Part shown: piece after piece, positions 14,513-34,195 of the stretch
Layout of the letters: every line of letters begins with the position of its first letter
Numbering within the stretch: position 1 is the stretch's first letter
NCBI GenBank assembly: GCA_045599825.1
Contig: JAZRWR010000113.1
Coordinates: 3,938 to 67,937, forward strand
From: Bianqueaceae bacterium
GTDB lineage: Bacteria; Bacillota; Clostridia; Lachnospirales; Bianqueaceae
Reading direction: 5' to 3'
Length of the DNA: 64,000 nt
Made by a program: the position numbers and the translations under genes
Notes under the pieces: generated by a model
Told to the model about the DNA's origin: nothing
Databases searched by the model: none
Seen by the model: only the letters and a program-made list of their open reading frames with translations

Positions 14513-14528
14513 GAGAAAATCCTTTCTT

Positions 14529-17450: not shown

Positions 17451-17519
17451 GCCGCACATACCTCCTCTGAAAATATCACTTCATTATAGCGCCAAAAAAA
17501 CAAGAGGTCAATTTTTTTG

Positions 17520-17548: not shown

Positions 17549-17584
17549 AAAGTGTATTTTTATCTATATCGAGGAGGACAGCGC

Positions 17585-18328: not shown

Positions 18329-18339
18329 GAGGATTTTCT

Positions 18340-19152: not shown

Positions 19153-20685
19153 ATGGCAGAAAACAGAAATGTCCGGTTCAGTCTCTCCGATATCGAACCG
19201 CTTTGCGTTGTCAAAAACCTGATTGAAAAATACTGGCTGATCATCCTGGCCTTTTTGATCGGCCTGATGGCCAGCAATCTGCTTCTGACGGCTATGTCGT
19301 CTCAAAGCTACACGAGCACAGCCACCTTTTCGGTAACGGCGCGCAGCTCCTCCAGCGGCACGGGCAGCTACTATGTCAACGCCAATGTCGCCTCCGAGGT
19401 CGTCAGCATCTATTCCGAGGTCTTTTCCAGCCGTCTGATGACGGACGCCATCCATGAAAATCTGGGCAGCGTCAACGGCACGATCTCGACCGCCGTGCTG
19501 GGCAGCACCAATCTGATCCGCGTCAGCGTCAACAGCCGGAACCCCAAGGATACGCTCCTCATCATGCAGTATATCATCGAGCACTACGCCGATGTCTCCG
19601 AATACGTTTCCAACACGGCTGTGCTGAGTCCGCTGTCCACGCCCAACATCAACGTGGTCGCCGAAAAGTCCTATAATATCGGGAAAAGCAGCCTGCTGGC
19701 CGGTATTGCCGGCGCGCTTCTGATGGTCGTTCTTCTGGTATTCCGTCACCTGAACGAGGACACCATCATGACGCCCGAGGGCGCCAAGAACAAGCTGGAC
19801 GCCAAGGTCATTACCAGCGTTCCTCACGAGACGCAGGGAGGCAGCCGCCTCATTACGTCCAGCAGCCAGCGCCGCTCCGAAATGGGCAAGCGCACCAACC
19901 TTCTGATCACCTCGCCTACCACCAGCTTTACCTTTACGGAGGCCATCCACAAGTGCGCCACCCGTTTCGAAAGCGAATATGACGCCGGCAAGCGCGTCTT
20001 CCTTTTCTCGAGCGTGTCCGAATCCGAGGGCAAGTCCACCATGGCCGCTAATGTCGCCCTTTCGCTGGCGATGCGCGGCGTCAAGGTGCTATTCATCGAT
20101 ATGGACCTCCGCCGTCCCGTTCAGACCGAGCTTTTGGGCAAGAAGATCGCCGAGGAGCAGGAGCTTGGCTACATGCTCAACAACGGCTTCACCTCCCGGA
20201 AGATCCTGGAAAACGTCATCCACGACGAAAAGACCGGACTGGACACTCTGCTGTCCGCGCACACCTACAAGAACATGGTGGAGCTGATCTCCTCCCCCGT
20301 GGTATCGCGGCTGATCAAGCGCGCCCGCGGCGAATACAATTATATCATCATCGACTCGGCTCCTCTCGGATACTTCTCCGACAGTGAGCTTCTGTCCGAC
20401 CTTTCCGACGCGTCCGTCCTGGTCGTCCGTCAGGACACTGTTTCGGCCGCGAACATCAACGACGCCATCGATGACCTGCGCGAGGGCAGGGCGGAGTTCC
20501 TGGGCGTGCTGCTGAATGACATGAACAGCTTCTCCGATGTCAGCGCCAATGCCGGCTACGGCTATGGCCGGGGCTACGGTTACGGCAAGTACGGCAAGTA
20601 CGGGAAATACGGCAAGTACGGCAAATACGGCAAGTACGGCAAGTACGACCGCCCGTCCGCTGAAGGAGAGGAGGCGAAGGCATGA
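19153..20685 (+). CDS. Fused Wzz (PCP) transmembrane modulator / BY-family protein-tyrosine autokinase with a (YGK)n tail, paralog 1
   Basis: Two TM helices flank a Wzz-like loop. Walker A SESEGKST, Walker A' VLFIDMDLRRP and Walker B YIIIDSAP are present. C-terminal tail is GYGYGRGYGYGKYGKYGKYGKYGKYGKYGKY. Confidence 0.85.
   Translation: MAENRNVRFSLSDIEPLCVVKNLIEKYWLIILAFLIGLMASNLLLTAMSSQSYTSTATFSVTARSSSSGTGSYYVNANVASEVVSIYSEVFSSRLMTDAIHENLGSVNGTISTAVLGSTNLIRVSVNSRNPKDTLLIMQYIIEHYADVSEYVSNTAVLSPLSTPNINVVAEKSYNIGKSSLLAGIAGALLMVVLLVFRHLNEDTIMTPEGAKNKLDAKVITSVPHETQGGSRLITSSSQRRSEMGKRTNLLITSPTTSFTFTEAIHKCATRFESEYDAGKRVFLFSSVSESEGKSTMAANVALSLAMRGVKVLFIDMDLRRPVQTELLGKKIAEEQELGYMLNNGFTSRKILENVIHDEKTGLDTLLSAHTYKNMVELISSPVVSRLIKRARGEYNYIIIDSAPLGYFSDSELLSDLSDASVLVVRQDTVSAANINDAIDDLREGRAEFLGVLLNDMNSFSDVSANAGYGYGRGYGYGKYGKYGKYGKYGKYGKYGKYDRPSAEGEEAKA
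20554..20646 (+). repeat. In-frame tandem 9-nt repeat (GGCAAGTAC-like) encoding the Tyr cluster of kinase 1
   Basis: ggcaagtac / gggaaatac / ggcaaatac units are repeated about 7 times head to tail. Confidence 0.9.
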
Positions 20686-22286
20686 GCGAAAACTATTCAG
20701 CTGACAGCAAGAAAAGTCCCGACAACCGCGTAGACCTGTTCGCCTTCTGGCGCCGCTTCCGTCCCTTCCTGGTCCGCTTCTGGTACCTTCCGCTGCTTCT
20801 GGCCCTGGTCGGCGCGCTCTTCATGGCCCTGCGCGCCCGCCGCAGCTTCGTCCCGAGATACCGCAGTGAAGCTATTTTCTCCGTTGCGGTCACCGATACC
20901 GACAGCCTGGACGTCTCTACCTACAGCTACTATTACGACAGTGCCGCCGCCAAGCAGGCAACGGCCACCTTCCCCTACATCCTCTCCAGCGACATCATGC
21001 AGGAGCTTCTGAAGGACCGTCTGAATGTGCCCTATCTGAACGGCAGCGTGCAGGCGAAGAGCATCGCCGATACGAACTTTATCGAGCTTTCGGTGACCTC
21101 GACGAACCCGGACGACGCCTACAGCATCCTGCAGGCCGTCATGGAGGTCTATCCGCAGGTCAGCCGCAAGGTCGTCGGCGAAACGCGCTTTACTGTCACG
21201 CAGCCTGCGCATAAATCGACGACGCCCTACAACAGCCTGAGCTGGAAGCGTCCGGCCGTTCTGGGTGCCTTTGCCGGCTTCGTGCTGGGTGTCGGCATTC
21301 TGCTGATTATGACGCTTCTGCGCCGCACAATCCTTTCGGAGGACGACGTCAAGCGCACCTCCAACCTGAACTGCCTCGGCCGCATTACCAACGACACCGA
21401 GAAAAAGCGTACCGAAACCGACGGCGAGGCAGGCATCCTGGTCACGCGTCTGCACACCGACTCGGCCTTCAGCGAATCCCTGCGCGGCTTCCGTCTGAAG
21501 ATCACCCGTGACCTCGGCCCCAAGGAAAAGATCATCATGTTTACCAGCTCCCTGCCCTCCGAGGGCAAGAGCTCTCTGGCGGCCAACACGGCCCTGCTTC
21601 TGGCCGGACACGGCAAGAAGGTGCTGGTGGTCGACGCCGACCTTCGCGGCCCCTCCATCAAGAGCATTCTGGGCATTACGGAGCCTTCCGCCGGCCTCGG
21701 CGAATGGCTGTCCGGCAAGTCCGAGGGGCTGAACTTCCTGCGCTACAAGGAAACCAGTCTGTATGTCATGGGCTCGGGCGAGGCCATCCCCGACCCCACG
21801 CCTATCCTGGTTCATGCCAACATCAACAACCTTTTCCAGCTGCTCCGGACGATGTTCGACTACGTCGTGGTCGACACGCCTCCCTGCACGCTGATGAGCG
21901 ACGCCGCGGCTTTCTGCCCTCTGGTGGACCGCGTCGTCTATGTCATCCGTGAGGATTATGCCTCTGTCTCCCAGGTCTCGGACGGTATCGAGAACCTGTC
22001 CGAGCACGGCGCCAAGCTGGCCGGCTTCGTGCTGAACCGCTGCGGCATCGGCGAGGCCTCCTCGTACTACTACGGCAAGTACGGCTACGGCAAGTACGGC
22101 TACGGCAAGTACGGCTACGGTAAATACGGCTACAGCAAGTACAGCTACGGCAAATACGGCTACGGCCGCTACAGCTACGGCAAGTACGGCTATGCCGGCT
22201 ACGGTTACGGCTACGGAACGTCCGAAGCCGATGAAGCCGAAGAAAACAACGAAAAACAGGAGGAAGCGCCGGATAGCGAGTCCTGA
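20682..22286 (+). CDS. Fused Wzz (PCP) modulator / BY-family protein-tyrosine autokinase with an extended Tyr-Gly-Lys tail, paralog 2
   Basis: ATGA start/stop overlap with paralog 1. Two TM helices. Walker A SLPSEGKSS, Walker A' VLVVDADLRGP and Walker B YVVVDTPP are present. Tail is YYYGKYGYGKYGYGKYGYGKYGYSKYSYGKYGYGRYSYGKYGYAGYGYGYG followed by an acidic end. Confidence 0.85.
   Translation: MSENYSADSKKSPDNRVDLFAFWRRFRPFLVRFWYLPLLLALVGALFMALRARRSFVPRYRSEAIFSVAVTDTDSLDVSTYSYYYDSAAAKQATATFPYILSSDIMQELLKDRLNVPYLNGSVQAKSIADTNFIELSVTSTNPDDAYSILQAVMEVYPQVSRKVVGETRFTVTQPAHKSTTPYNSLSWKRPAVLGAFAGFVLGVGILLIMTLLRRTILSEDDVKRTSNLNCLGRITNDTEKKRTETDGEAGILVTRLHTDSAFSESLRGFRLKITRDLGPKEKIIMFTSSLPSEGKSSLAANTALLLAGHGKKVLVVDADLRGPSIKSILGITEPSAGLGEWLSGKSEGLNFLRYKETSLYVMGSGEAIPDPTPILVHANINNLFQLLRTMFDYVVVDTPPCTLMSDAAAFCPLVDRVVYVIREDYASVSQVSDGIENLSEHGAKLAGFVLNRCGIGEASSYYYGKYGYGKYGYGKYGYGKYGYSKYSYGKYGYGRYSYGKYGYAGYGYGYGTSEADEAEENNEKQEEAPDSES
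22065..22217 (+). repeat. In-frame tandem 15-nt repeat (TACGGCAAGTACGGC-like) encoding the Tyr cluster of kinase 2
   Basis: About 10 near-identical units are visible at 22065-22217. Confidence 0.9.
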
Positions 22287-22313: not shown

Positions 22314-23993
22314 GTGAAGAAAAAGCTCAGTGACATCAAGGAGCTGTGGCAGGAGATTGTCTGGATCTACCGCTACGGAAAGAATTACACGGGCGCCATT
22401 CTGCTTTATGTTCTGCTGGGGCTTCTGGCCACGGCAGTGGGCCTTTTCAGCTCGGTCGTCTCCAAGTACCTGATCGACGCGGTCACGTCCGGAGATGTTT
22501 CCCGCATCAGCCTGATCATTGCGCTCTATGTGGGCTTCGGTGTGACGCGTATCCTGCTCGGGGCGCTGACGAAGCGCTTCCGCGCGCATACCGGCGTGAG
22601 GGCCACCAACGAAATCCGCGAGGACCTTTTCGGCCGTTTCCTGGCCATCGACTGGCAGGCATCCCTGGACTACCATTCCGGAGACCTTTTAAGCCGCATC
22701 AACAGCGATGTCGCCACCGTGGCCGACAGCATCCTCGGCCTGATTCCGAGCCTGATCACCGCGGGCCTGCAGTTTGCGGGCGCCCTTTTGGTGATTCTGA
22801 TCTACGATCCGATGATGGCGCTGTGGGCACTGATTTCAGCCCCTGTCACGGTCCTGTTCTCGCGTCTTTTTCTGACGAAGATGCGCGCCCTCGGCCAGAA
22901 GGTCCGGGAGCGGCAGGCGGATCTGACCGGCTTTTACGAGGAAGCCCTGCAGAATCTGCAGGCTATCAAGGCCTTTCATCTGAACGGCACCATGGAGGAG
23001 CGTCTGGCCGGGCTGCAGCAGCTGTACAAGGATGTCTATCTGGAGAGCGCTGATTTCTCCGTCTGGATGGGCGTTGTCATGTCCGTGCTCGGCTTTGCGA
23101 CCTCGGGCCTCTGCTTTGCCTGGGGCGCGTTCCGCCTGTGGACAGGCTATATTTCCTTTGGCACGATGGTGCTTTTCATCCAGATGGCAGGCACGGTAAC
23201 GAGCGCCTTCAGCTCTTTGGTTTCGATCGTCCCAGGCGCCGTGAGCGCCGCGGTTTCGGCCGGCCGTCTGATGAAAATTCTGGAGCTTCCCGCCGAAAAT
23301 TCCGAGACGGACGAGGAGACAGAGGCCTTTATCGAAAAAGCGTTTACGGCCGGTGCGGGCCTGGTGCTGGAGAACGTCTCTTTTGCGTACCGCGAGGGCA
23401 TTCCGGTGCTGGAGCAGCTGAATCTGACGGCTGAAAACGGTCAGATCATCGGTATTATCGCGGAAAGCGGCGGCGGCAAGACGACACTGATCCGCCTGCT
23501 TCTGGGGCTGGTAAGCCCTGACGGAGGAGAGGCCTTCGTGCTTCTTTCCGACGGGACGAGGAAGCCGCTCAGCCCTGCGCTGCGTCCGCTTTTCTCCTAC
23601 GTGGCCCAGGAAAAGGTCGTCTTTTCCGGCACGGTGGCAGAGAGCCTGCGGCTGGGAAATCCCGCAGCAGGCGATGAAGCTCTGTGGGACGCGCTGGAAC
23701 GAGCCTGCGCTGCCGATTTCGTACGCGCGCTGCCCGAGGGCATCGATACGAAGCTGGGCGAGCGCGGTGCGGGTCTGAGTGAGGGACAGATCCAGCGTTT
23801 GGCCATCGCCCGGGCCATCCTGAGTCCCGCGCCCCTGCTCCTTCTGGACGAGGCTACCTCGGCCCTTGATTTTGAGACCGAAAAAAAGGTGATCCACGGT
23901 CTGCTGGCCGGCGAGGAGCGCCGACGCACGGTCATCGCAACAACGCACCGCCCGACGGTGCTCGAATACTGCGATGCCGTCATTCAATTATAA
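22314..23993 (+). CDS. ABC exporter, fused permease/ATPase (type I exporter, 559 aa)
   Basis: Six-TM N-terminal domain. P-loop AESGGGKTT, signature LSEGQIQRLAIARA and Walker B LLLLDEATSALD are present. GTG start follows AAAGGAGG. Confidence 0.85.
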   Translation: MKKKLSDIKELWQEIVWIYRYGKNYTGAILLYVLLGLLATAVGLFSSVVSKYLIDAVTSGDVSRISLIIALYVGFGVTRILLGALTKRFRAHTGVRATNEIREDLFGRFLAIDWQASLDYHSGDLLSRINSDVATVADSILGLIPSLITAGLQFAGALLVILIYDPMMALWALISAPVTVLFSRLFLTKMRALGQKVRERQADLTGFYEEALQNLQAIKAFHLNGTMEERLAGLQQLYKDVYLESADFSVWMGVVMSVLGFATSGLCFAWGAFRLWTGYISFGTMVLFIQMAGTVTSAFSSLVSIVPGAVSAAVSAGRLMKILELPAENSETDEETEAFIEKAFTAGAGLVLENVSFAYREGIPVLEQLNLTAENGQIIGIIAESGGGKTTLIRLLLGLVSPDGGEAFVLLSDGTRKPLSPALRPLFSYVAQEKVVFSGTVAESLRLGNPAAGDEALWDALERACAADFVRALPEGIDTKLGERGAGLSEGQIQRLAIARAILSPAPLLLLDEATSALDFETEKKVIHGLLAGEERRRTVIATTHRPTVLEYCDAVIQL

Positions 23994-24459
23994 TATGATG
24001 ATGCACGAAGTATCTGCCGCGGCTGAAGTGCTGCCGCGTATGAAAAAGGCGCTGTCGGAGTTCGGCCTGTGCCGCCTGGTCGTCACCGGAGGCAGCATGC
24101 TGCCCTTCCTGCACTCCAGGCGCGACGCGGTCCTGCTGGAGCCCTTTGACGGTACGGCAAGAGTCGGCGACATCCTGTTCTATCAGCGCAGCGAAAATTT
24201 CTGCGTGCTGCACCGGGTGCATCGCATGGGCCGGGACGGCCTTATGTACTGCACCGGCGATATGCAAAGTCAGCTGGAGCCTGTGCGGCCTGAGCAGGTG
24301 ATCGCACGCGTGCAGGCTGTCGAGGTCAAGGGCAGACGCACGCCCGTAACGGCCTTTTCCTACCGCCTGCGAAGCGCGCTGTGGTATCCCACCCGGCCGA
24401 TTCGGCCGCTGATGGCGCGCGTCTATCTGTCCCTTCGGCAAAAAAACGTTAACAAGTAA
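23974..24459 (+). CDS. S26 (SipW/ER-type or SodX-like) signal-peptidase-family protease, apparently soluble
   Basis: GGSMLPFL matches the G.SM.P catalytic Ser block. GDILFY and VLHRVHR match the S26B GDI...HRV His block. No N-terminal TM helix is visible. The start overlaps the ABC gene end by 20 nt. Confidence 0.6.
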   Translation: MPSFNYNMMMHEVSAAAEVLPRMKKALSEFGLCRLVVTGGSMLPFLHSRRDAVLLEPFDGTARVGDILFYQRSENFCVLHRVHRMGRDGLMYCTGDMQSQLEPVRPEQVIARVQAVEVKGRRTPVTAFSYRLRSALWYPTRPIRPLMARVYLSLRQKNVNK

Positions 24460-24470
24460 GAGGAAGCAGC

Positions 24471-25187
24471 ATGAAAAAAGAAACGAGTCCGCTTTTTAAA
24501 GTCCTGCACGGGGTTTTTTTACTGCTCGTTGCGGTAGTGGCGGGTCTCGCGGTGCTTCGTGCCTGCCAGCTTGGCTGGTTTGAGAGAAAACAGCCCGCTG
24601 AAAGCGATATCGCTTCCGAAAGCGAGGAGAGCAAGGCTTTGCTGGAGCTGGACGGCAAGTTCAGGCTCATCAGCGTGATGACGCTCTCCGGCTCCTTCTA
24701 CGAGGACGCAAGCAACGACCCGGTCGAAAAGGTGCTGACTGTTCTGCTGCAATACAGCGGCGAAAAGGCCGTCCGCTCGGCTGAGCTCGTGCTGAACGGC
24801 TGCTATCATTTTGTGCTGAGTGCGGTGCTGCCCGGCGACTCGATTTATGTGCTTGAGCAGAACCGAAGCGTTTATCCGCAGGGAATGACCATTGCCTCGG
24901 CAGAGCTTTGCTCCGTGGAATACTATGAGGAGCTGCCCGGCCTGATGGAGGAGCAGCTTTCGATTCTCGTGAACGGTAAGAGCCTGACGGTGCAGAACCG
25001 AAGCGACAGTGAGATGTTTCCCGGCGGCACGCTGGTGTATAAAAATGAATACGAGGGCTGTCTGCTGGGCGGAATCAGCTACACGCTGGAGCTCCCGCCG
25101 CTCATCCCGGGCCAGAGCGCAGAGCTTACGGCGGAGCGCTGCCGCGGCAGCGGCTCGCGGCTGATGTTCATTTTGCCCGCCGACTGA
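24471..25187 (+). CDS. Hypothetical N-terminally membrane-anchored protein (238 aa)
   Basis: One TM helix (VFLLLVAVVAGLAVL) followed by a beta-rich ectodomain. No family recognised. Confidence 0.45.
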   Translation: MKKETSPLFKVLHGVFLLLVAVVAGLAVLRACQLGWFERKQPAESDIASESEESKALLELDGKFRLISVMTLSGSFYEDASNDPVEKVLTVLLQYSGEKAVRSAELVLNGCYHFVLSAVLPGDSIYVLEQNRSVYPQGMTIASAELCSVEYYEELPGLMEEQLSILVNGKSLTVQNRSDSEMFPGGTLVYKNEYEGCLLGGISYTLELPPLIPGQSAELTAERCRGSGSRLMFILPAD

Positions 25188-25199
25188 GAAACTTGTCCC

Positions 25200-25228
25200 T
25201 TGTGAAAATCACGCAAAACCTGTATAAT
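25200..25228 (+). promoter_or_regulatory. Putative internal sigma-70-type promoter upstream of the radical SAM gene
   Basis: TTGTGA (25200-25205), a 17-nt spacer, then TATAAT (25223-25228), 25 nt before ATG 25254. Confidence 0.5.
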
Positions 25229-25253
25229 ATATTCCAAGACCGAGGACGCGACT

Positions 25254-26396
25254 ATGCTTGACAACCGACCCGCCGGATATGTGCCCCGTTCGGAGCCCAT
25301 GATTTCCAGCCATCTGAACGCGCTGGGCATTCGCAAGGGCCTGCCTGTTTCCGGAAACTTTGAGCTGACTGCCCGCTGCAATTTCGACTGCCGCATGTGC
25401 TATGTGCACCAGAACGGCGATCTGCGCCGGCGGGAGCTCTCCGCCGATACCTGGCTGGGTCTCGCATCCGACGCGCGCGACCTGGGGATGATGTTCCTGC
25501 TGCTGACCGGCGGCGAGCCCTTCATCCGTGAGGACTTTCCTTATATCTATGAGGAGCTCGTCAGGATGGGGCTGGTCGTCTCCGTCAACACCAACGCCTC
25601 TCTTTACAGCGAAGAGCTGCGCGAGCTGTTTCTGAAATATCCGCCTTCACGCCTGAACGTCACGCTGTACGGTGCGTCCGAGGAGACCTACCGCGCGCTC
25701 TGCCGCAGCGCTTCGTACGAAAAGGTCGTCTCCAATCTTCGTTCGATGAAGGCCGACGGCCTGCAGGTGCGTCTAAACGTGTCTCTCACGCCCTGGAACG
25801 TGGCCGACATGGAGGGCATCCATCAGATCGCCGCCGATATCGGTCTGAACGCCAAGGGTTCGGCCTATATGTATCCCCCGGTGCGCCTCACGGAAAGCTA
25901 CGGCGAAAACGCGGCGCGCTTCAGCCCGGAGGAGGCCGGCCGTGTTTTCGCGGCCTGGAACCGCCTGAACGAAGGCGATGAGCGCTTCCTCGCGAAGGCA
26001 GAGGCAATGGGACGCTGGGACAACTGTGAGGAGATTCTGGCGGACAGCCCCGAAAACGGCGTCCGCTGCCGCGCCGGCCGCAGCAGCTTCTGGCTGACCT
26101 GGGAGGGCAAAATGCTTCCCTGCGGCACCATGGATATCGAGACCTCCGACGCTTTGAGCCTGGGCTTTGCCAAGGCCTGGGAGGAGGTGCGTGCGCGGAC
26201 GGCAGCCATTCGCCTGCCCGCCGAGTGCGCATCCTGCAGTCACCGTCAGAACTGCAGTCTGTGCGCGTCCATCTGTCGCTGCGAAAGCGGAGGCTTTGAC
26301 AAACGGCCCGAATATCTTTGCAAAATGGAGAAAAGCCGCTATGAGGAAACTCAGAAGCTGGCCCAACTGATTAAGGAGGAGAACCATGCAGATTAA
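25254..26396 (+). CDS. Radical SAM enzyme with a C-terminal SPASM domain
   Basis: CNFDCRMC (CX3CX2C) cluster and GGEPF are present. C-terminal Cys-rich region is CRAGRSSF...LPCG...CASCSHRQNCSLCASICRC. Confidence 0.85.
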   Translation: MLDNRPAGYVPRSEPMISSHLNALGIRKGLPVSGNFELTARCNFDCRMCYVHQNGDLRRRELSADTWLGLASDARDLGMMFLLLTGGEPFIREDFPYIYEELVRMGLVVSVNTNASLYSEELRELFLKYPPSRLNVTLYGASEETYRALCRSASYEKVVSNLRSMKADGLQVRLNVSLTPWNVADMEGIHQIAADIGLNAKGSAYMYPPVRLTESYGENAARFSPEEAGRVFAAWNRLNEGDERFLAKAEAMGRWDNCEEILADSPENGVRCRAGRSSFWLTWEGKMLPCGTMDIETSDALSLGFAKAWEEVRARTAAIRLPAECASCSHRQNCSLCASICRCESGGFDKRPEYLCKMEKSRYEETQKLAQLIKEENHAD

Positions 26397-26649
26397 AGGT
26401 GAATTTATCAAACGAGACATTGCGGGAGAAAGCTTTCTGGTGCCTGTCGGCGAAAGCCAGCACCGCTTCCCCGGACTGATTGCCTTGAACGAAGTGGCTT
26501 CCTTTGTCTGGGACCGGCTTCCTTCCTGTGAGACGGAGGCGCAGATCGTTGACGCCCTTCTGGACGAGTACGAGGTCGAGCGCTGGGAAGCGGAAGCCGA
26601 CGTGGCGGAGCTCATCGCCAAAATGACGGAAATGGGCCTGATTGAATAA
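26386..26649 (+). CDS. PqqD-family protein (RiPP recognition element-like), 87 aa
   Basis: Pattern present: FLVPVG...LIALNEVASFVWDRL....TEAQIVDALLDEYEV....AEADVAELIAKMTEMGLI. The start overlaps the rSAM stop by 11 nt. Confidence 0.75.
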   Translation: MQIKGEFIKRDIAGESFLVPVGESQHRFPGLIALNEVASFVWDRLPSCETEAQIVDALLDEYEVERWEAEADVAELIAKMTEMGLIE

Positions 26650-26661
26650 AGAATATGCACG

Positions 26662-26694
26662 AGGCCGGGGAGCTTTCCTCGGCCTTTATTGTTT
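26662..26694 (+). terminator. Rho-independent terminator after the rSAM-PqqD pair
   Basis: AGGCCGGGGA (26662-26671) pairs with TCCTCGGCCT (26676-85) with one G-U pair, followed by TTTATTGTTT. Confidence 0.6.
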
Positions 26695-26754
26695 GATGAG
26701 GCCGGGCACAGCGCCGGAGAAAGTTCATTTTTGGAATATTTTTATTCGTTTTTG

Positions 26755-26783
26755 TTGACTGAGAGCTGAAACTGAGATATACT
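26755..26783 (+). promoter_or_regulatory. Putative sigma-70-type promoter for the Lgt-like/vWA unit
   Basis: TTGACT (26755-26760), a 17-nt spacer, then TATACT (26778-26783). Confidence 0.5.
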
Positions 26784-26867
26784 GTATTGGTTATTGTCAG
26801 GCAGGAGGCACCGATATCATGAATACGCTGCCGGCTGTCTGTTAGTTCTCTCTTTTTTCTAAAAGCT

Positions 26868-27509
26868 ATGAGTTTATTGATTTATTTAGGCCTCGGGGCC
26901 GCCATGATGTATCTGGTCATGTTTTTTCTGCAGGACCGGTACAAGATCAAGCCAGGAAAGCTTCTCATGTTTGATCTCCTGCTTACCGTCTGCGGTGTCG
27001 CCGGTGTCAAGCTGATGTATTTTGTTGAAAACGGAAGTTTCGCGGGGCTTTCCTTCTTCGGAGCAGTGCTGATTACGCCGCTTCTTCTGATTCCCGTTGC
27101 GCTTCTTCTGAAGGAACGTGTTCCCGCCGTCCTGGATCTTTCCGCCCCGGCCATCTGCGCTATGCTTGGCGTCATGAAGATTCAGTGTGTGGTAGAAGGC
27201 TGCTGCCGGGGCCGCATGATGGACCTCTTCGGTCTGCTTTTGCCGTTCCGCTTTCCCAGTCAGTTGGTTGAGCTCGCGAATGCCTGCGTGCTGGTTGTGG
27301 TTTTGGTGTGTCTGGCGCGCAAAAAGGCCAATTACGGCCATATTTATCCGCTGTTTCTGGTTCTCTACGGAATCACGCGCTTTGTCTGGAACCTTTTCCG
27401 TGAGGCAGAGCCTTTCATCGGGCCTTTGCCTATCGGTAATTTCTGGTCTTTGATTTCTCTGATTATCGGCCTTATCTGGCTTTTCGCCCTGAAAAAGAAG
27501 AAGGCGTGA
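26868..27509 (+). CDS. Prolipoprotein diacylglyceryl transferase (Lgt) family paralog, short form (213 aa)
   Basis: Multi-TM protein. KIQCVVEGCCRGR resembles the RIGCFL.GCC.G block of short Lgt-family proteins. FPSQLVE resembles the Lgt P(T/S)QLYE motif. YGITRFVWNLFRE resembles Y...RF..EF.R. Confidence 0.5.
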   Translation: MSLLIYLGLGAAMMYLVMFFLQDRYKIKPGKLLMFDLLLTVCGVAGVKLMYFVENGSFAGLSFFGAVLITPLLLIPVALLLKERVPAVLDLSAPAICAMLGVMKIQCVVEGCCRGRMMDLFGLLLPFRFPSQLVELANACVLVVVLVCLARKKANYGHIYPLFLVLYGITRFVWNLFREAEPFIGPLPIGNFWSLISLIIGLIWLFALKKKKA

Positions 27510-27603
27510 TTTTTTGCATTTCGGTTTGTATGCACTAACGAATGTGCATGTTCTAACTGATATTAGTACTTTGGTAAAATACACTGTTGAAAGGTAGTAA
27601 GTT

Positions 27604-30510
27604 ATGAAGCAGTTAAAGAAGACCTTCGCTTTGTTCCTTTCCATGCTTCTTTGCCTGTCTGCCGTTCCCGCCGTCGGCGCTTTTGCCGATGAGGGCGGCT
27701 CCGACGAGGAAAGCGGTCTGATTTTGGACAAGTGGTACACTCCAAAAGCCGATTCCGGTGAAGGCATCCTGACGCTCGAAACCTACGTCAAGGGTACGGT
27801 CGTTCATACGACTACGGTAGTCAGCCAGCCGCTTGACATTGTTCTGGTGCTGGATGTATCCGGCTCCATGGATGATTCCCTTTCCGCCAGCGGCGCCAGC
27901 GGATATTCGGTCAGGACGGGTGTCTCTTATAACAACGCGAACCAGCGGAATTTCTATTTCCGCGAAGGAAACACCTATTACCGCGTTTATGCGCACAGAA
28001 CGGGCTTCGGTCTGGATGCTTATTATTACCTGAGCTTTACCAAGGACGGAACAGAATACTTCCTGAAGGGCGATTCGTATACGGAGGATATTTCTTCCGC
28101 TTGGGTCAGCAGCGGCAGCACAGCGATTTACACGGAAACGCTTTACTATTCGCTGGGGTACTCTCCCTCTAAGCTGGATGTATTAAAGAGCGCCGTAGCC
28201 GGCCTGATCGATACAGTCTATGCCGATGCCATTGCCAATGAGGTTGATCACCGTATCAGCATCGTCACCTTCGCTTCTTCGGCAAATACGGTTGACGAGC
28301 TGGTATCCGTAAGCGAAAACTATGACAGGCTGATAAAGGATACGGGCGCTCTGAGAGCAAACGGTGCTACGGCGGCCGACTACGGTCTTCAATCTGCCGA
28401 TACCGTTATGCAGGACGCCCGTTCCGACAGCAACAGGGTCGTCATCTTCTTTACTGACGGTGAGCCGAATCATAACAGCGGCTTCGACGGATCGGTTGCG
28501 ACCAAGGCAATCACGGCAGCTAAGAGCCTGAAGGATGACGGAGCCAAGGTCTATTCCGTCGGCGTATATGATGCGAGCTCCGGTGGAGGCGGCTGCGGAG
28601 GCGGCTGTGACGATGAGGCCGACCTTACCACTGTCATGAACTACATGCACGCCATCTCCTCCAACTATCCCGCTGCGACTTCTTATACGAGCAGTACCAT
28701 GGGCACCGGCAGCGATCTGGGTTATTCGCTGATGGCCGGTAATGCAGGCGAGCTTTCCGGTATTTTTGAGACAATTACCAAGGAGGCGGTCGAGGGTTCG
28801 GCCCGCATTCAGCTTGATGCCGATGCGGTCGTGCTGGATAAAATTTCCGACTATTTTGAGCTGCCTGAAGGCATTGAAGAAAAAGACATTAAGGTTTATT
28901 ATGCCGATTATCTCGGCAACGACAGCTGGAGTGAGAAGCGGGCTTTCACGGCTGCTGCATTGGAGCTTGATGTGAAGAATAAGCAGGTCCGCGTTTCCAA
29001 CTTTGACTTTGCTTACTACTTCGTTCCCGAGGACGGCGCGGCCAAAAACAGCAACGGAATTAACGGCCGCAAGCTGATTATTGAAATCCCCATTGTCGAT
29101 AACGGCACCGGCTTCGGAGATGTGCCTACCAATACGGGCGATTCCGGTGTTTATCAGAATGAAGAGAAGGTCGAAAACGGCGAGAGCGTTGATCGCTATC
29201 CCATCCCTGAAACGACCTTCCCGAGCTTCACTGTTATTCATTCCTCCGACAGTTCTGCGGATAAGATTCGTCTTTCCTCCGTCGGTACTGAGGGCTTTGA
29301 TCTTTCTGCCATCGTGAAGGAGGGCCATCTTTACGGTGGCTACTATCACTACGAAAACAGCACGGTAGGGGCTCCCTATACCTCGAGCGGTCTGACGCTT
29401 CAGCCTGCGGACGGTGCGGTATACTTCCTGCAGGAGGTGCCCAAGACCTATCTGCGTCCGGCCACTCTGTCCCTTTCCTCCAAGGGTGTTAAGTATACCT
29501 GGATGCTGACCGCTATTGACAGCCTGAACTACAAGCTGGCCGGCTTTGATGTGGCCGGTAAGGATATCAGTCTGACCGTACCGGAAGCGGCGGCGGAGCA
29601 GGACAGCTTCTGCAAGAGCAGCGCGGACGAGATGGACGCGGTCTGCGAGACAATCCATGTGGAAATGGTCTACGGAAAGACGTACGATTACGATGTTCTG
29701 ATGGTTTCCGGCAACCTCGACGGTTACATAGTCTGCCTGCGCTTCAGCAATCCGGAGAGCTATATCGATAACGGAAGCTTTGATGTTCATCCCTATTTTG
29801 TCACACCCGATAATGTCAAGGTTACCGGCGATACGGTCCGTACGTTGACCTACACTTCAGCCAATCTGACTGAGACTGCGTCCGGAACGGGTGCGAAGAA
29901 CCCTGTTTCCTCGGATGTGACGGATTTTGACGAATATGTCTCCGCTGCGCCCTATGCGCCTCTCCGGCTGATGAGCTTCGTGCCTCTGCGTGCGGTTCCC
30001 TCCAAGTCTCTTGAGGTTGTAGAGCCTGCGCCTCAGGCTCCCGTCGAAGAACCCGAGGCCGTTGAGGAGCCTGCAGGAGAGCCTGAGGTCGCTGAGGAAC
30101 CTGCGGAGGAATCTGCGGTCGTCGAAGAGCCGGCGGAAGAAACCGCGGAAATCGCTCCCTCGGATGCGTCTGATTATGAAGCCCCTGAGCAGGTCATTCC
30201 GGAGGAAGAGCCCGCTGAGGAGCCTGAGCAGAAGGAAAGAGTTACGCCGGTTATTCCGGATCCCGTCGTTGTAGAGCCCGAGGAAGAGCCTGCTCTTATT
30301 GAAAAGCCTGCCGAAGACGCGGCTGAAGCGCCCGTTGATGAAGCGGAGGATGTGCCGGCTGAGGAGCCTGCGGATACGGAGCCGGAAGCTGAGCACGCGG
30401 ATGAGGCTTCGACCGAAGAGGCCGTTATTATGCCTGCGATCAGCTGGCTGCTTCGCGTTCTGACTGCGGTCAGCACCTTCCTGGCCCGTCTGTTCGGTTT
30501 TGTGAAATAA
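27604..30510 (+). CDS. Secreted/cell-surface von Willebrand factor A domain protein with a Pro/Glu-rich stalk and a C-terminal hydrophobic anchor (968 aa)
   Basis: Signal peptide MKQLKKTFALFLSMLLCLSAVPAVGAFA. vWA MIDAS block VLVLDVSGSMDD, then IVTFASSA, GATAADYG, VVIFFTDGEPN. The C-terminus is an EEPAE-type repeat region followed by ISWLLRVLTAVSTFLARLFGFVK. No LPXTG motif. Confidence 0.8.
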   Translation: MKQLKKTFALFLSMLLCLSAVPAVGAFADEGGSDEESGLILDKWYTPKADSGEGILTLETYVKGTVVHTTTVVSQPLDIVLVLDVSGSMDDSLSASGASGYSVRTGVSYNNANQRNFYFREGNTYYRVYAHRTGFGLDAYYYLSFTKDGTEYFLKGDSYTEDISSAWVSSGSTAIYTETLYYSLGYSPSKLDVLKSAVAGLIDTVYADAIANEVDHRISIVTFASSANTVDELVSVSENYDRLIKDTGALRANGATAADYGLQSADTVMQDARSDSNRVVIFFTDGEPNHNSGFDGSVATKAITAAKSLKDDGAKVYSVGVYDASSGGGGCGGGCDDEADLTTVMNYMHAISSNYPAATSYTSSTMGTGSDLGYSLMAGNAGELSGIFETITKEAVEGSARIQLDADAVVLDKISDYFELPEGIEEKDIKVYYADYLGNDSWSEKRAFTAAALELDVKNKQVRVSNFDFAYYFVPEDGAAKNSNGINGRKLIIEIPIVDNGTGFGDVPTNTGDSGVYQNEEKVENGESVDRYPIPETTFPSFTVIHSSDSSADKIRLSSVGTEGFDLSAIVKEGHLYGGYYHYENSTVGAPYTSSGLTLQPADGAVYFLQEVPKTYLRPATLSLSSKGVKYTWMLTAIDSLNYKLAGFDVAGKDISLTVPEAAAEQDSFCKSSADEMDAVCETIHVEMVYGKTYDYDVLMVSGNLDGYIVCLRFSNPESYIDNGSFDVHPYFVTPDNVKVTGDTVRTLTYTSANLTETASGTGAKNPVSSDVTDFDEYVSAAPYAPLRLMSFVPLRAVPSKSLEVVEPAPQAPVEEPEAVEEPAGEPEVAEEPAEESAVVEEPAEETAEIAPSDASDYEAPEQVIPEEEPAEEPEQKERVTPVIPDPVVVEPEEEPALIEKPAEDAAEAPVDEAEDVPAEEPADTEPEAEHADEASTEEAVIMPAISWLLRVLTAVSTFLARLFGFVK
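30010..30420 (+). repeat. Low-complexity Pro/Glu/Ala-rich repeat region (EEPAE-like units) inside the vWA gene
   Basis: VEEPEAVEEPAGEPEVAEEPAEESAVVEEPAEETAE...EEEPAEEPE...EEPADTEPE. Confidence 0.8.
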
Positions 30511-30525
30511 GGAGGAAGAAAGATT

Positions 30526-30690
30526 ATGAATCCTTTTCTTTATACTGTCTATGACGGAAACGGAAATGAAATCGGCATGGTCAGTATGCCCTGGTCCCAG
30601 ATCGATTTTACGCCTGCGGCCGGGATTATTAACTTCGACGGTCATACCTACCGTCAGCTTGATGACAACACGCTGCAATTGCTGCGATAA
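30526..30690 (+). CDS. Unlisted small ORF, 54 aa (MNPFLYTVYDGNGNEIGMVSMPWSQIDFTPAAGIINFDGHTYRQLDDNTLQLLR)
   Basis: Hand-translated, below the 60-aa cutoff of the ORF track. GGAGG at 30511-30515 lies 10 nt upstream of ATG 30526. TAA at 30688-30690. A GC-rich hairpin plus T-tract follows at about 30703-30735. Confidence 0.45.
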   Translation: MNPFLYTVYDGNGNEIGMVSMPWSQIDFTPAAGIINFDGHTYRQLDDNTLQLLR

Positions 30691-30746
30691 CAGTAATAAT
30701 TTGGCGGTACCGCAATCGGCGCCGCCTTTTCTCTTGGAGATACAGA

Positions 30747-31490
30747 ATGCATTATATTACGTTTCCGTTGGCCGGACACAGGCTGGCCTACGCAACGGAC
30801 GACGATAAGTGCGCATCCTATTTGGAGGCGTACCGGAGGCTCTGTGAGGAATGCCGGGCATCCGCTCAGAACGCGGTAAGCGAAACGCTTTTCATGCTAA
30901 GCGAGGAGGAGTGCCGGAACGCGTCCGCGCACTACCCCGCGTGCTCGAGCCGGACCGAGGTTGAAATGGGGGAACTGCTTTTTCAAACCTCCTCGTATCT
31001 TTTGCGCCATGAGGCCTGTCTGTTCCACGGAGTCGCGTTTCTGTGGCGCGGCAGGGCGTGGATCTTTACCGGTCCGAGCGGCGCAGGAAAGAGCACGCAG
31101 TATATGCAGTGGAAACTGCGCTATCCGGAGGAGCTCGTGATCATCAACGGCGACAAGCCGGTCATCAGCCGCGGCGCAAACGGGAAGTTTTTCGCGTCCG
31201 GCTCTCCCTGGAACGGGAAAGAACATTTCGGGCAGGCGCTTGAGGCGCCCCTGGGCGGTGTGATATGGCTGGATCAGTCGAAGGAGAACCGCCTGGAGTC
31301 CATGAGCCCGGAGCAGGCGGCGCCGCGTCTGTTTCTGCAGTTTCTGCTGCGTCCCGCAGATGAGGCGGAGCTTGCGCGGCTGATTGCCCTCGAGGAGGCA
31401 TTGCTTGCGCAGGTGCCGGTGTGGCATTTAATGAATTTGGGCGACCGCGCGTCGGCTGAGCTTCTGCACGACGCTTTGGCGGAAGCATAA
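30747..31490 (+). CDS. HPr-kinase-related P-loop protein (HprK C-terminal-domain-like)
   Basis: LFHGVAFLWRGRAWIFTGPSGAGKSTQY matches the H(A/G)..........G.SG.GKS block of HprK-related kinases found in peptide-modification cassettes. No HPr-kinase N-terminal domain. Confidence 0.6.
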   Translation: MHYITFPLAGHRLAYATDDDKCASYLEAYRRLCEECRASAQNAVSETLFMLSEEECRNASAHYPACSSRTEVEMGELLFQTSSYLLRHEACLFHGVAFLWRGRAWIFTGPSGAGKSTQYMQWKLRYPEELVIINGDKPVISRGANGKFFASGSPWNGKEHFGQALEAPLGGVIWLDQSKENRLESMSPEQAAPRLFLQFLLRPADEAELARLIALEEALLAQVPVWHLMNLGDRASAELLHDALAEA

Positions 31491-31511
31491 GAGAAAGATG
31501 GGTTTACCGAT

Positions 31512-31802
31512 ATGATGAAATATCAGCTGAGGGACGGTGTCGTTCTGGCGGAGCTGTGTCACCAGCCGATGCTGGTCGCGACCGGCCCTGCGCTCGACCA
31601 CTGCGCCTATATGAGTCTGATGAATGACGACGCCGCATTTTATCTGAGACTGCTGGCAAATCCGCAGACGGTCTCGCAGATGGCGGCCGCTGCTGCGGTG
31701 CAATACGAGCAGAGCGAGGAAACCATGACAGCCATTGTGGAGCAGTTCATGGATTTCCTGGTCCAAAGAGGCTATGTGATACAGGTGAACGGCGATGAGT
31801 GA
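31512..31802 (+). CDS. PqqD-family protein (second copy, 96 aa)
   Basis: Pattern present: ...GVVLAEL..QPMLVA....LNDDAAFYLRLL...QTVSQMAAA.A.QYE.SEETMTAIVEQFMDFLVQRGYV. Confidence 0.6.
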   Translation: MMKYQLRDGVVLAELCHQPMLVATGPALDHCAYMSLMNDDAAFYLRLLANPQTVSQMAAAAAVQYEQSEETMTAIVEQFMDFLVQRGYVIQVNGDE

Positions 31803-33126
31803 GAGACTGAGCGAACGAGTCGAAGCGCTTTTTATCCGCATCCTTTCGGATTCTCTGCGGGGCGAAGCGTCGCCTGCGGCCTCGGAGCTTGCCGGCGAAG
31901 AAGAGGCGGCCGCGCTTCTGTCTTTGGCGCAGCGGCAGATGGTGCTGCCTTTGGTGCTCGAGGCCTGCCGTGACAGCCGGACCGTTCTGGAGCTTCCGAT
32001 GCTTCCGGAAATCCGCGTGCGCGCCTGCGCGTCCGTCGCGCATCAGATGGTCTACGACCGGCAGACACGCGAGCTCCTGTGCGCCGCCTATGAGGCCGGC
32101 TTCACGCCGCTGGTGCTGAAGGGCGTGATGTGCCGGCGCATCTATCCCGCGGGCAGTCTGCGTCCCTCCTCGGATGAAGACTTCTATCTGCGCCCGGAGG
32201 AGTTTCAGGGCTTCTGCCGTTTCATGACGGAGCAGGGCTTCAGCCGCGCGGATGACGGTCCTGCCGATGCGAAGGAGCCGGGCGAGCGCTGCTACTCGAG
32301 TGAAAAAACCGGCCTCTGTGTGGAGCTGCATCCCTGCTTTTTCTCAAAAGAAAAGGCCTTTGCCAGGGTCGAGACCGCGCTTTCGGACGCCTACGAGCGT
32401 CGGACCTGGTACGACTGCGACGGTCGGGTGTGCGACACCGTCGCCTCCCTCCTGCGGGCCCGGAAGCCGCGAAACGACGGCAAGCGGACAGCGTCCCTTT
32501 TTCAGGATAAGCTCTGTCTGTCGCTTTCTCCGACCGATCATCTTTTTTATCTGCTCGCTCATGCCTACAAGCATTTTCTTTACAGCGGCTTCGGCATCCG
32601 GCAGGTGCTGGACATCGGCCTGTGGGCCGGGAACTACGACCTGGAGCTGGACTGGACATCGCTTCTCAGAACGTTGGAGCGCTGCAGCATGAACGGCTTT
32701 GCGTCGGCGGTGCTCAGGCTGGCGCGCGACTGTTTCGGTATCGGAATCAGGCTGCCGGAGAAGCTGGCGGCGGACGAAACTCCGCTCGAACCGATGCTGA
32801 ACGATCTTCTGGATGCCGGCATCTACGGCTCCTCCGAGCTCAGCCGGCTGCACTCCGCGCCCATCCTGCTGGAGCGCGCGTCGGAGGGTGAGGACCGGAG
32901 TCCCGCTCGGCAGCTGTTCCCGCGCGCGAAGGCTCTGGAGAGCCGTTATCCCTTCCTGAGGGAGCGTCCGTGGCTCCTGCCCTGGGCCTGGCTGAAGCGC
33001 GACTGCGCCTACGTCAAGGAAACACTGACCCGCCGCGACAGCAAGATGATGCGGACGCTTCGGATTGCGGAAGAGCGTACGGAGCTGGCGCGTCTGTACG
33101 GCGTGCTTCCGGGAAAAAAGCAATAA
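31795..33126 (+). CDS. Uncharacterised nucleotidyltransferase family protein (NTP_transf_5-like, 443 aa)
   Basis: VLKGVMCRRIYPAGSLRPSSDEDFYL (LKG...YP....R...D.D) and VELHPCFF blocks are present. ATGA overlap with the preceding PqqD gene. Confidence 0.6.
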   Translation: MSERLSERVEALFIRILSDSLRGEASPAASELAGEEEAAALLSLAQRQMVLPLVLEACRDSRTVLELPMLPEIRVRACASVAHQMVYDRQTRELLCAAYEAGFTPLVLKGVMCRRIYPAGSLRPSSDEDFYLRPEEFQGFCRFMTEQGFSRADDGPADAKEPGERCYSSEKTGLCVELHPCFFSKEKAFARVETALSDAYERRTWYDCDGRVCDTVASLLRARKPRNDGKRTASLFQDKLCLSLSPTDHLFYLLAHAYKHFLYSGFGIRQVLDIGLWAGNYDLELDWTSLLRTLERCSMNGFASAVLRLARDCFGIGIRLPEKLAADETPLEPMLNDLLDAGIYGSSELSRLHSAPILLERASEGEDRSPARQLFPRAKALESRYPFLRERPWLLPWAWLKRDCAYVKETLTRRDSKMMRTLRIAEERTELARLYGVLPGKKQ

Positions 33127-33130: not shown

Positions 33131-33176
33131 AGCCCCTTACCATGCAGTTCATGCTGAGTGGTAAGGGGCTTCTTGT
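33131..33176. terminator. Bidirectional terminator between convergent genes
   Basis: AGCCCCTTACC (33131-33141) pairs with GGTAAGGGGCT (33160-33170). AAAAAC lies upstream and TCTTGT downstream. Confidence 0.55.
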
Positions 33177-33189
33177 GTGCGGGGAAAGC

Positions 33190-34026
33190 TCAGGCCAGGC
33201 AATGCTCCAGATAGGCCTGCGCCAGACGGCGGTAGGTTTCGCCGTCCTTCATGGCGATGGGGCAGCCGTCCAGGGTCTTGCCGCGTTTTGTGAAGGTGGA
33301 GGAGCCGGTCACCAGGACCTCGTCCGCGGCGAACAGCTCATCGCGCGTAAAGACGCGTTCCTCGACGGGGATGCCGAGCTTGCGTGCGCAGAGCATCACG
33401 TGCTTTTTGGTGATGCCGGGAAGGATCAGTTCGCTGTCGGGACGGGTGATGAGCACACCGTCCTTCAGGATCATGACGTTTGTGTGGCTGCCCTCGGTGA
33501 CGGTCCCGTCGGGGCGGATCTGGACGGCCTCGTAGGCGCCGGCCTCGTGCGCGGCCTGGTTGGCCATGACGTTGCCGTAGAGATTGAGGGTTTTCACATT
33601 GCAGAAGTGGTGGCGGCGGTCCTCGACCGTGATGAAATCAACCGGGGCGAAGACATCGGGCAGCTTCTTGGCGCTGACGGTGATGAGCAGGTTGGGTTTG
33701 GTGCCCTCCGGCGGGAAAAAGTGCGTGCGGGGGGCGGTTCCGCGGCTGGTCTGCCAGTAGATCATGGCGGCCGGGGCGTCGATGCGGCTGTTCAGATCCA
33801 GGAGGAGGGCGGTCAGCTCTTCCTTGGACCAGATGGGCTCGATGCGCATCAGCCGCATGCTGTTGAAGAAGCGGTCGACATGATCCTTGAGATCGATCGG
33901 TTTGCCGTTAACGACGTAGGCCGCATCGTAACAGCCGTCGCCGAAGAAGAGCGCGCGGTCCAGGAAGGGAACGGTCAGTTCCTCTGGCGCGCCGATTTGT
34001 CCGTTATAATAAGCGATATTGGTCAT
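33190..34026 (-). CDS. Class IV aminotransferase (D-amino-acid / branched-chain type, 278 aa)
   Basis: FLDRALFFGDGCYDA, GAYEAV...DGTVTEGSHTNV and ILPGITK blocks are typical of fold-type IV PLP enzymes. Start set at ATG 34026 after AAGGGA. Confidence 0.8.
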   Translation of the reverse strand: MTNIAYYNGQIGAPEELTVPFLDRALFFGDGCYDAAYVVNGKPIDLKDHVDRFFNSMRLMRIEPIWSKEELTALLLDLNSRIDAPAAMIYWQTSRGTAPRTHFFPPEGTKPNLLITVSAKKLPDVFAPVDFITVEDRRHHFCNVKTLNLYGNVMANQAAHEAGAYEAVQIRPDGTVTEGSHTNVMILKDGVLITRPDSELILPGITKKHVMLCARKLGIPVEERVFTRDELFAADEVLVTGSSTFTKRGKTLDGCPIAMKDGETYRRLAQAYLEHCLA

Positions 34027-34168
34027 AACAATCCCTTTCTTTCTGAAAGCGCTGCCCTTATTATAGCGCAAAAGCCTGTTTTGGCAAGGTTTTTCGGGCG
34101 GAGGAGGACAACCGCAGGGCTGGGGCAGCTTCTCGTGCAGACGCGAGGGTTTTGAAGCGTTTGATGAA

Positions 34169-34195
34169 CAAAAAAACATCCACAGACTGTGGATG
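34169..34195 (-). terminator. Terminator of the tRNA operon
   Basis: CATCCAC / GTGGATG hairpin at 34177-34195. On the minus strand it is followed by the T-run complementary to the A-run at 34169-34176. Confidence 0.6.

Follow-up and report, generated by a model that had tools for sequence, protein, structure and literature searches.

The locus studied here raises the question of whether a short open reading frame (ORF), lying between the gene of a large surface protein and a set of peptide-modifying enzymes, is a gene at all and, if so, what its product does. The locus lies in the window, a stretch of 64,000 nucleotides (nt) from a Bianqueaceae bacterium (assembly GCA_045599825.1, contig JAZRWR010000113.1, positions 3,938–67,937 of the forward strand). 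In the window, the gene of a secreted vWA protein is followed by the 54-codon ORF (30526–30690) and by the genes encoding an HPr-kinase-like protein, a PqqD-type recognition element for peptides that are made by ribosomes and modified after translation (RiPP recognition element, RRE) and a nucleotidyltransferase. In our study, the ORF was found in the place of the small partner in a conserved module composed of an adhesin, a small ORF, an HprK-like kinase and a PqqD protein. That it is a real gene is highly probable. We give a probability of about 0.5 to the reading that its product of 54 amino acids (aa) is an atypical, leaderless client of the kinase, the second RRE (RRE2) and the nucleotidyltransferase, in an adhesin-linked variant of the recently described linear polyphosphorylated peptide (LPP) systems.

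The ORF starts at ATG 30526, with a spacer of 10 nt from the Shine-Dalgarno sequence AGGAGG at 30510–30515. It contains 54 sense codons and ends at TAA 30688–30690, followed by the presence of two extra in-frame TAA codons at 30694 and 30697. The start, the stop and the 10-nt spacing from GGAGG that a preliminary description of this DNA had given were borne out when the sequence was read again, and its translation of 54 aa was matched exactly. Scored by codon usage, the frame of the ORF reached +0.16 bits per codon, which was the best of the six frames and equal to the score of the adjacent kinase gene; it was placed in the top 5.8% of the 2,533 ATG ORFs of 45–70 aa in the genome. The guanine-cytosine (GC) content was 47.5% in the small ORF, 54.7% in the vWA gene, 60.6% in the kinase gene and 56.9% in the genome, so that the earlier caveat about a low-GC composition holds. 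Standard gene calling misses the ORF, and the consequence for annotation is that a gene has to be called at 30526–30690. The stop codon of the vWA gene and the ATG of the small ORF are separated by 15 nt, and both genes share the reading frame. A read-through fusion of the two, across the TAA and the five codons between them, was considered and rejected. Only 5 of 16 related loci had the two genes in frame, which is the rate expected by chance, so programmed read-through is unlikely and the shared frame looks like chance.

Since no small-protein homologue of the product was found, the status of the ORF as a gene rests on the comparison of loci. Homologues of the kinase at 38–52% identity were followed back to their contigs, and a scan of 185,579 species genomes gave 528 kinase relatives, of which 80 loci were kept (related loci are numbered with the prefix L below). 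In a maximum-likelihood tree of 110 kinases, built by a quick method, the window kinase was placed in a clade of 25 members with a Shimodaira–Hasegawa-like approximate likelihood ratio test (SH-aLRT) value of 99. A gene encoding a large secreted protein with a shared domain, named X here, was found directly upstream of the kinase region in 22 of these 25 members, and two more members were located at contig edges. The large proteins ranged between 384 and 2,141 aa, and the shared domain between ~220 and 350 aa (residues ~534–837 in the window protein). A short ORF of 54–108 aa, preceded by a Shine-Dalgarno sequence and starting 2–41 nt past the large gene, was found in about 25 loci of gut and rumen Clostridia; its end was 11–180 nt from the kinase gene. 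This slot was occupied in all the related loci with enough upstream sequence, except for L068 and L070.

The ratio of nonsynonymous to synonymous substitution rates (dN/dS) was 0.20–0.37 for those syntenic small ORFs that could be aligned and 0.19–0.25 for the adjacent kinase. The preliminary description had proposed a search for co-occurrence in syntenic loci and had named the loss of the frame in such loci as evidence that would speak against a gene. In our comparison, an ORF with a Shine-Dalgarno sequence was present beside the kinase and PqqD genes and, at the level of the class, the frame was conserved. The earlier worry that the ORF belongs with the vWA gene instead falls away, because the adhesin, the small ORF, the kinase and PqqD form one conserved module.

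Small ORFs located 5' of the kinase in L148–L159, L039, L069 and L073 constituted a sub-family of 53–69 aa, which was represented by 32 clusters at 90% identity in a set of 5.8 billion proteins. Its members contained a conserved N-terminus (FTFPELY or MSVFKPMLGSALGPLE), followed by a variable Gly-rich middle and a likewise conserved C-terminal hairpin with the pattern 'LPDG..VYF...G.I(V/L)'. All four of the sub-family contexts sampled, which came from 2 of the 32 clusters and represented two distinct arrangements, had the order vWA/GBS104-Ig adhesin, 59-aa ORF, ScmC-like kinase and PqqD, with housekeeping genes at the flanks. Judged by gene order, the minimal conserved unit is one of four genes, namely the adhesin, the small ORF, the kinase and PqqD. 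The nucleotidyltransferase and the exporter were frequent extras to this unit.

The closest known system to the island of genes at 22314–33126 is the LPP pathway. The LPP family was defined in May 2026 from the lppA-K-B-S-D-N cluster of Paenibacillus alginolyticus (Popov et al., Nat Commun; PMC13381572). The precursor LppA is 35–200 aa long and contains the leader YxxPxVLxHQxIxFETxxS. The enzymes are the kinase LppK, the RRE protein LppB, the archaeal-type signal peptidase LppS, the MsbA-like exporter LppD and the nucleoside triphosphate (NTP) transferase LppN; the clusters contain no cyclase and are often embedded in capsule loci. Polyphosphorylation of Ser3 of the core was dependent on the kinase and removal of the leader on LppS, and LppN was inactive in the host used for the reconstitution. 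Clostridia, radical S-adenosylmethionine (SAM) enzymes and surface proteins are unmentioned in the paper (PMC13381572).

All the five LPP enzyme types were found in the island. They comprised a kinase with the HprK/P fold and the P-loop GPSGAGKS, a discrete PqqD-type RRE in two copies, a peptidase candidate, an exporter and an NTP transferase; the peptidase and the exporter were located 6–8 kb upstream, in a separate block. The absence of a lasso cyclase, the small ORF directly 5' of the kinase and the capsule-type genes nearby were also shared with LPP clusters. However, the product of the window lacks the YxxPxVLxHQxIxFETxxS leader and is predicted to be folded, and the module is firmly joined to the gene of a large secreted adhesin that contains a shared domain. 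The block of the peptidase and the exporter also includes a radical SAM enzyme together with another RRE. The adhesin-linked cassettes of the relatives contained no peptidase homologue in the 6–7 kb flanks fetched. The small adhesin-linked proteins have conserved ends instead of a conserved leader with a free core, and the hosts are Clostridia here and Bacilli in LPP.

The kinase had no match in the copies of Pfam and NCBIfam used, the Pfam copy being one without PF27840. A comparison of its profile with the sequences in the PDB stopped at the level of the P-loop, so a comparison of the fold was needed. The AlphaFold2 (AF2) model, built with 15 homologues, had a predicted local distance difference test (pLDDT) score of 93.8. 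Foldseek ranked the HprK/P structures 1kkl, 1kkm and 1knx first (E about 6e-6), with phosphoenolpyruvate carboxykinases next. The P-loop residues S111, G112, G114, K115 and T117 were invariant in the homologue alignment (A1), and position 116 was T or S. The label HPrK-like in the preliminary description is confirmed through the fold and not through a sequence family.

Similar enzymes tailor phosphorylated lasso peptides. The paeninodin cluster contains the kinase PadeK and the RRE protein PadeB1, and the kinase phosphorylates the C-terminal Ser. For pseudomycoidin, phospho-glycosylation by PsmK and PsmN is described, in which a hexose is placed onto the phosphate. To go by the title of the report, neither a leader nor a leader peptidase is required to make pseudomycoidin, which is a possible precedent for a leaderless client (PMC8498205, PMC5067487, PMC6993621). 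The lasso tailoring sets share with the island the joint presence of an HprK-like kinase, a PqqD-type RRE and an NTP_transf_5-type transferase. They differ in that the island is devoid of a macrolactam cyclase and B2 peptidase, and in that the C-terminal residue of the product is Arg and not Ser, with a longer and predicted folded chain. In the 79%-complete assembly, the lasso cyclase model PF00733 gave just two PP-loop-type matches of ~20 bits that covered under a fifth of the model, and the B2 model PF13471 gave none; neither was found in the window. Distant kinase loci were examined as paeninodin-type lasso clusters and rejected, as their gene of ~156 aa encodes a homologue of the signal-peptidase-I-like protein and not B2. 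The SynChlorMet cassette (TIGR04248–04251, PF27840) resembles the island in its HprK-like ScmC, the family in which the kinase is annotated, in its PqqD-like ScmD, the best NCBIfam match of the second PqqD, and in its radical SAM/SPASM enzymes ScmE and ScmF, which the radical SAM enzyme of the island matched. However, all these matches were far below the family cut-offs, and the cassette is described by bioinformatics only, with no adhesin or small folded protein.

An acidic composition with many Gly and aromatic residues was common to all the peptides encoded in the slot, and it is shared by the 54-aa product, which contains seven aromatic residues and has a net charge of -4. The motif [FYW]xxPx[LIVMF] was found in the first 32 residues of 12 of the 22 positional equivalents (shuffle mean 1.0, maximum 5 in 2,000), a count that is descriptive and not a probability, because the equivalents are related to one another. 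A motif of the [FYW]xxP type is what the RREs of lasso and LPP systems bind (PMC13381572). A layout of leader and core is present in many equivalents and absent in this copy, which lies beside RRE-dependent enzymes all the same. Three slot ORFs of other loci (L074:6495-6749, L075:6672-6929 and L078:1278-1511) contained single EF-hand/dockerin-like calcium-binding loops (DADQDGIITYDEF, DYNGDGTVDEADY), with Pfam matches at E 2e-4 for EF-hand_1 and E 0.19 for Dockerin_1, both below the cut-off. The large protein of L060 had a weak dockerin-like match at its end (Dockerin_1 E 0.007, below cut-off).

Searches with the 54-aa product returned no small homologue. A word-indexed search of 5.8 billion proteins retrieved the product itself as the sole match, and an exhaustive phmmer search of 1.84 billion representatives and a JGI metagenome scan found no small homologue and no homologue, respectively. 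A tBLASTn-type search of 60 related genomes gave nothing below E 0.009, all matches being inside long ORFs, and Pfam and NCBIfam gave no match (Pfam none at E <= 5). The AF2 model from the single sequence was a compact all-β structure of six strands with a pLDDT of 89 and a predicted TM-score (pTM) of 0.68. Foldseek found no match for this model in the PDB (best E 0.27). The predicted fold argues against a typical disordered RiPP precursor. With no recognisable leader and a predicted fold of its own, the product would be a leaderless, protein-like client and not a precursor of leader plus core.

The 35 phmmer matches were all giant repeat proteins, each matched through 3–17 weak stretches. For residues 2–31 of the product, the likeness was to 'PFVVTVTDAGGNPV..VSV.WS' strands in a repeat of the Big_1-like type (hhalign probability 88%). 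For residues 23–46, it was to 'Q(V/I).YTPAAGY.G.DSFTYK..D' strands in a repeat of the cadherin-like type (77%). Shuffled queries reached at most 21%. These immunoglobulin-like (Ig-like) templates were chosen post hoc, and the phmmer E-values were treated as inflated by the repeats. The likeness to Big_1/invasin-type and cadherin-like/Big_9 repeats consists of these strands and the all-β AF2 model, whereas each match covers only half of the 54 aa and belongs to a different repeat family, with no match to the profile of a whole domain of ~90–100 aa (Big_1, Big_9 or Cadherin_5). In our view the echoes support no more than a β-sandwich-like character, and they are not taken as homology. Two ideas on the N-terminus 'YTVYDGNGNEIG', that it is a YD/RHS repeat and that it is related to the 'LPDG..VYF...GNIVG' family of small proteins, were rejected; the profile of this family scored the product at -1.2 bits. 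The idea of a split domain, in which the product would resemble its own adhesin or the X domain, was also rejected, with no similarity by BLAST or hhalign.

The small ORF and the kinase gene are separated by a stem-loop. In the stem GGCGGU.CCG/CAAU/CGG.GCCGCC, six pairs are followed by a 1x1 internal loop and three more pairs, with CAAU as the loop. The tract UUUUCUCUU at 30727–30735 follows directly 3' of the stem, and then comes the GGAG of the kinase gene. Taken alone, the hairpin is unremarkable: its centroid was -15.5 kcal/mol (z = -1.84), 12 of 200 shuffles folded equally well, and a strict terminator scan did not list it. Rfam over 30000–31200 returned just one chance snoRNA match (E 0.34). 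Of 17 related loci that were folded, 14 contained a GC-rich hairpin with a U-run in this interval. L059 was a fifteenth locus of the kind, and the element was also present in L148–L153, L156 and L158. Because the same element is kept across related loci, the hairpin is more than chance. The partial terminator of the preliminary description is thus real, with an architecture conserved in relatives, although modest when taken alone. In L059 (5231–5300), the called start of the kinase P0006 falls inside the terminator-like hairpin that follows the ORF, and the true start is probably a downstream Met (MEHYISL...).

These observations led us to the reading given at the outset, in which the product is an atypical leaderless client. 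The tie between the slot ORF and the kinase clade, with its SH-aLRT of 99 and an adhesin gene upstream in 22 of 25 members, supports this reading. The LPP precedent shows such a set of kinase, RRE and NTP transferase acting on a small ribosomal peptide from a neighbouring gene. From the order of genes and signals we infer the following course. One transcript would cover the gene of the vWA adhesin as well as the 54-codon ORF, and the ORF would be translated from its own strong Shine-Dalgarno sequence. The hairpin and U-tract would stop most transcripts, so that the adhesin and the mini-protein would be made in excess over the enzymes. The acidic product would then be captured by the PqqD-type RRE2 and phosphorylated on Ser/Thr by the kinase, and the phosphate might be extended or decorated by the NTP_transf_5 enzyme, as in pseudomycoidin. 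The product would be exported via the MsbA-like exporter and act with the adhesin at the cell surface.

Several points weigh against this reading. The product has no small-protein homologue in very large searches, and it is encoded by the lowest-GC element of the island. It contains no [FYW]xxP motif, since at the -3 position its prolines 3, 22 and 30 have no residue, Val and Asp, respectively. Neither the YxxP-type leader nor the Gly-rich linker of most equivalents is present in it, only 'MNPFL', and the profile of the nearest small-protein family failed to detect it (-1.2 bits). An all-β fold predicted from one sequence would be unusual for an RRE client. The decoration step is weakly grounded, because LppN was inactive in the only LPP reconstitution (PMC13381572). 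In addition, the pair of kinase and RRE2 could instead serve Cys-rich peptides encoded elsewhere in the genome. Three such paralogous peptides of 58–81 aa were found on contigs C9 (3393-3629, minus strand), C67 (9941-10183, minus) and C27 (3-176, minus), with the LPP-like leader MKKDY.KPE.VF.SFELSQ.IAAGCE.... On C9 and C27, the peptide gene came directly after a giant protein gene (2,275 and 1,746 aa, respectively), and on C9 it was followed by a homologue of the membrane protein of the island and a second kinase-like gene. Of the earlier proposal that the product is a substrate of the kinase, PqqD and nucleotidyltransferase, the conserved slot and the LPP precedent speak in its favour, but the missing RRE-binding leader and the predicted fold do not.

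Several features fit a somewhat unlikely alternative, the main rival of our reading, in which the product is an autonomous β mini-protein that works with the adhesin, be it as its partner, its cap, its chaperone or its strand donor, while the enzymes act on other peptides. The six-strand fold predicted with confidence from one sequence, the missing RRE-binding motif, the 15 nt from the adhesin stop, a low GC content closer to the adhesin than to the enzymes, the Ig-like echoes (88% and 77%) and the three peptides with canonical leaders on C9, C67 and C27 all point in this direction. However, the minimal four-gene module, which includes an RRE and a kinase, has no peptide-sized gene other than the small ORF, and most positional equivalents do contain the RRE motif. 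The product is not similar to the adjacent adhesin or the X domain, and the Ig-like resemblance was found post hoc in a search of 1.8 billion proteins and was amplified by repeats. It is improbable that the region holds no functional gene and belongs to the vWA gene as its 3' untranslated region with a terminator, with a chance frame or the decaying relic of an Ig-like repeat. An orphan without small homologues, with the lowest GC content in the island, without the leader motif of its class and followed by a hairpin that alone marginally beats shuffles, could be expected from such a region. Against this stand the AGGAGG at ideal spacing from the ATG, the codon usage, which puts this frame ahead of the other five and within the top 6% of small ORFs, the Shine-Dalgarno-preceded slot ORF in about 25 loci with purifying selection where measurable, and the low chance that a random stop-free frame of 54 codons would give a fold with pLDDT 89.

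The option, raised in the preliminary description, that the product is a substrate of the radical SAM/SPASM enzyme (25254–26396) and its PqqD (26386–26649) is very unlikely. The ORF is the only short one in the island with a Shine-Dalgarno sequence, and the radical SAM block is without a precursor of its own in the window. But the product is free of Cys, as had been remarked before, whereas the slot peptide of L047, where the radical SAM enzyme is in the kinase operon, is Cys-rich. For these reasons the three Cys-rich peptides, one of them beside the homologue of the island membrane protein, are much better candidates than the product, and they are likely in-trans substrates of the block of radical SAM enzyme, first PqqD and peptidase. 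There is hardly any chance that the product is a lasso precursor, with a leader ending in FTP and a core starting with AAGIINFD. A T-x-A...D8 pattern is present at residues 29–38 (Thr at -2, Asp at core position 8), and the known tailoring genes of lasso peptides include those of a kinase, a PqqD protein and a nucleotidyltransferase. The pattern, however, lies inside predicted β-strands, no cyclase or B2 was found in the window or in the 79%-complete assembly, and the related cassettes are also without cyclases.

The LPP-type systems were described only in 2026 (PMC13381572), and a small client gene hard-wired to a secreted adhesin in about 25 related loci points to a function at the cell surface. 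The 54-aa ORF is also the only candidate client in the island. Being leaderless and predicted to be folded, it is an atypical client, which makes it useful for testing how much RRE-dependent kinases can depart from the classical recognition of a leader. A broader proposal, which we consider doubtful, is that the enzymes of this clade, instead of maturing a peptide of leader plus core, modify small, autonomously folding modules resembling surface proteins, which dock onto or complete the co-encoded giant adhesin. In this proposal the modules would be an Ig-like β mini-domain here and EF-hand/dockerin-like or β-hairpin mini-proteins in the relatives. If this were true, bacteria would have a previously unknown means of arming or regulating an adhesin, in which a folded mini-protein is phosphorylated or phospho-glycosylated, and LPP-type systems, still without a function, would gain a concrete biological role.

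The features of the island are collected in the following table.

Table 1. Genes and signals of the island and their positions in the window.
Feature	Position	Strand	Basis
MsbA-like ABC exporter, 559 aa	22314–23993	+	Pfam ABC_membrane, ABC_tran
Archaeal-type signal-peptidase-I-like protein, 161 aa; candidate LppS-type leader peptidase	23974–24459	+	TIGR02228 E 4.4e-6, SipW E 0.008
Membrane protein	24471–25187	+	
Radical SAM/SPASM enzyme	25254–26396	+	Pfam Radical_SAM; ScmE/ScmF-like NCBIfam matches
First PqqD (RRE1)	26386–26649	+	Pfam PqqD E 5e-16; lasso_PqqD matches
Lgt-like protein	26868–27509	+	
Secreted vWA protein, 968 aa; adhesin-like first gene of the module	27604–30510	+	Pfam VWA E 1e-10
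Shine-Dalgarno sequence AGGAGG	30510–30515	+	Read off the sequence; counterparts ahead of syntenic small ORFs
54-codon ORF, product MNPFLYTVYDGNGNEIGMVSMPWSQIDFTPAAGIINFDGHTYRQLDDNTLQLLR	30526–30690	+	Sequence reading; codon log-likelihood ratio best of six frames; AF2 model; syntenic slot
Stem-loop (30703–30726) and U-tract (30727–30735), terminator/attenuator-like	30703–30735	+	RNA folding; counterparts in most related loci
HPr-kinase-like P-loop protein, 247 aa; candidate LppK-type peptide kinase	30747–31490	+	GPSGAGKS; PF27840 (ScmC) precomputed annotation; fold
Second PqqD-family RRE (RRE2), 96 aa	31512–31802	+	Pfam PqqD E 1.4e-7
NTP_transf_5 nucleotidyltransferase, 443 aa, LppN/PsmN type; last of the unit	31795–33126	+	Pfam PF14907 E 4e-37
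Class IV aminotransferase	33190–34179	-	Pfam E 1e-42

The vWA protein contained a signal peptide, followed by the X domain and a C-terminal hydrophobic tail. In the 161-aa protein, the TIGR02228 and SipW matches (NCBIfam) were both below the cut-off, and the translation contained the Ser motif GGSMLP...LHRV. The exporter of the window was 38–42% identical (E ~1e-130) to those of L061, L066, L067, L070, L072 and L076, followed by 34% (E 9e-81) in L064; it is the orthologue of the exporter located 3' of the nucleotidyltransferase in related cassettes. RRE2 was 34–39% identical to the PqqD proteins of minimal adhesin modules. The unit ends at 33126, since the next plus-strand ORF (33142–34155, 337 aa) is just the antisense shadow of the minus-strand aminotransferase, with a translation rich in Gly, Ala, Val and Asp, and was rejected as a gene. 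Capsule-type Wzz/BY-kinase genes adjoin the island upstream. Homologues of one such gene (20682–22286) were found just past the exporter in L066, L067, L072 and L076 (at ~12.8–14.6 kb), so that the capsule-type linkage extends across the clade, with a permuted gene order in the window. Elsewhere in the genome, contig C82 contained a second NTP_transf_5 paralogue (17250-18476, minus strand), 35% identical to that of the window and located ~2.3 kb from a radical-SAM-like gene (14493-14954, minus strand), which is possibly another peptide-modification locus.

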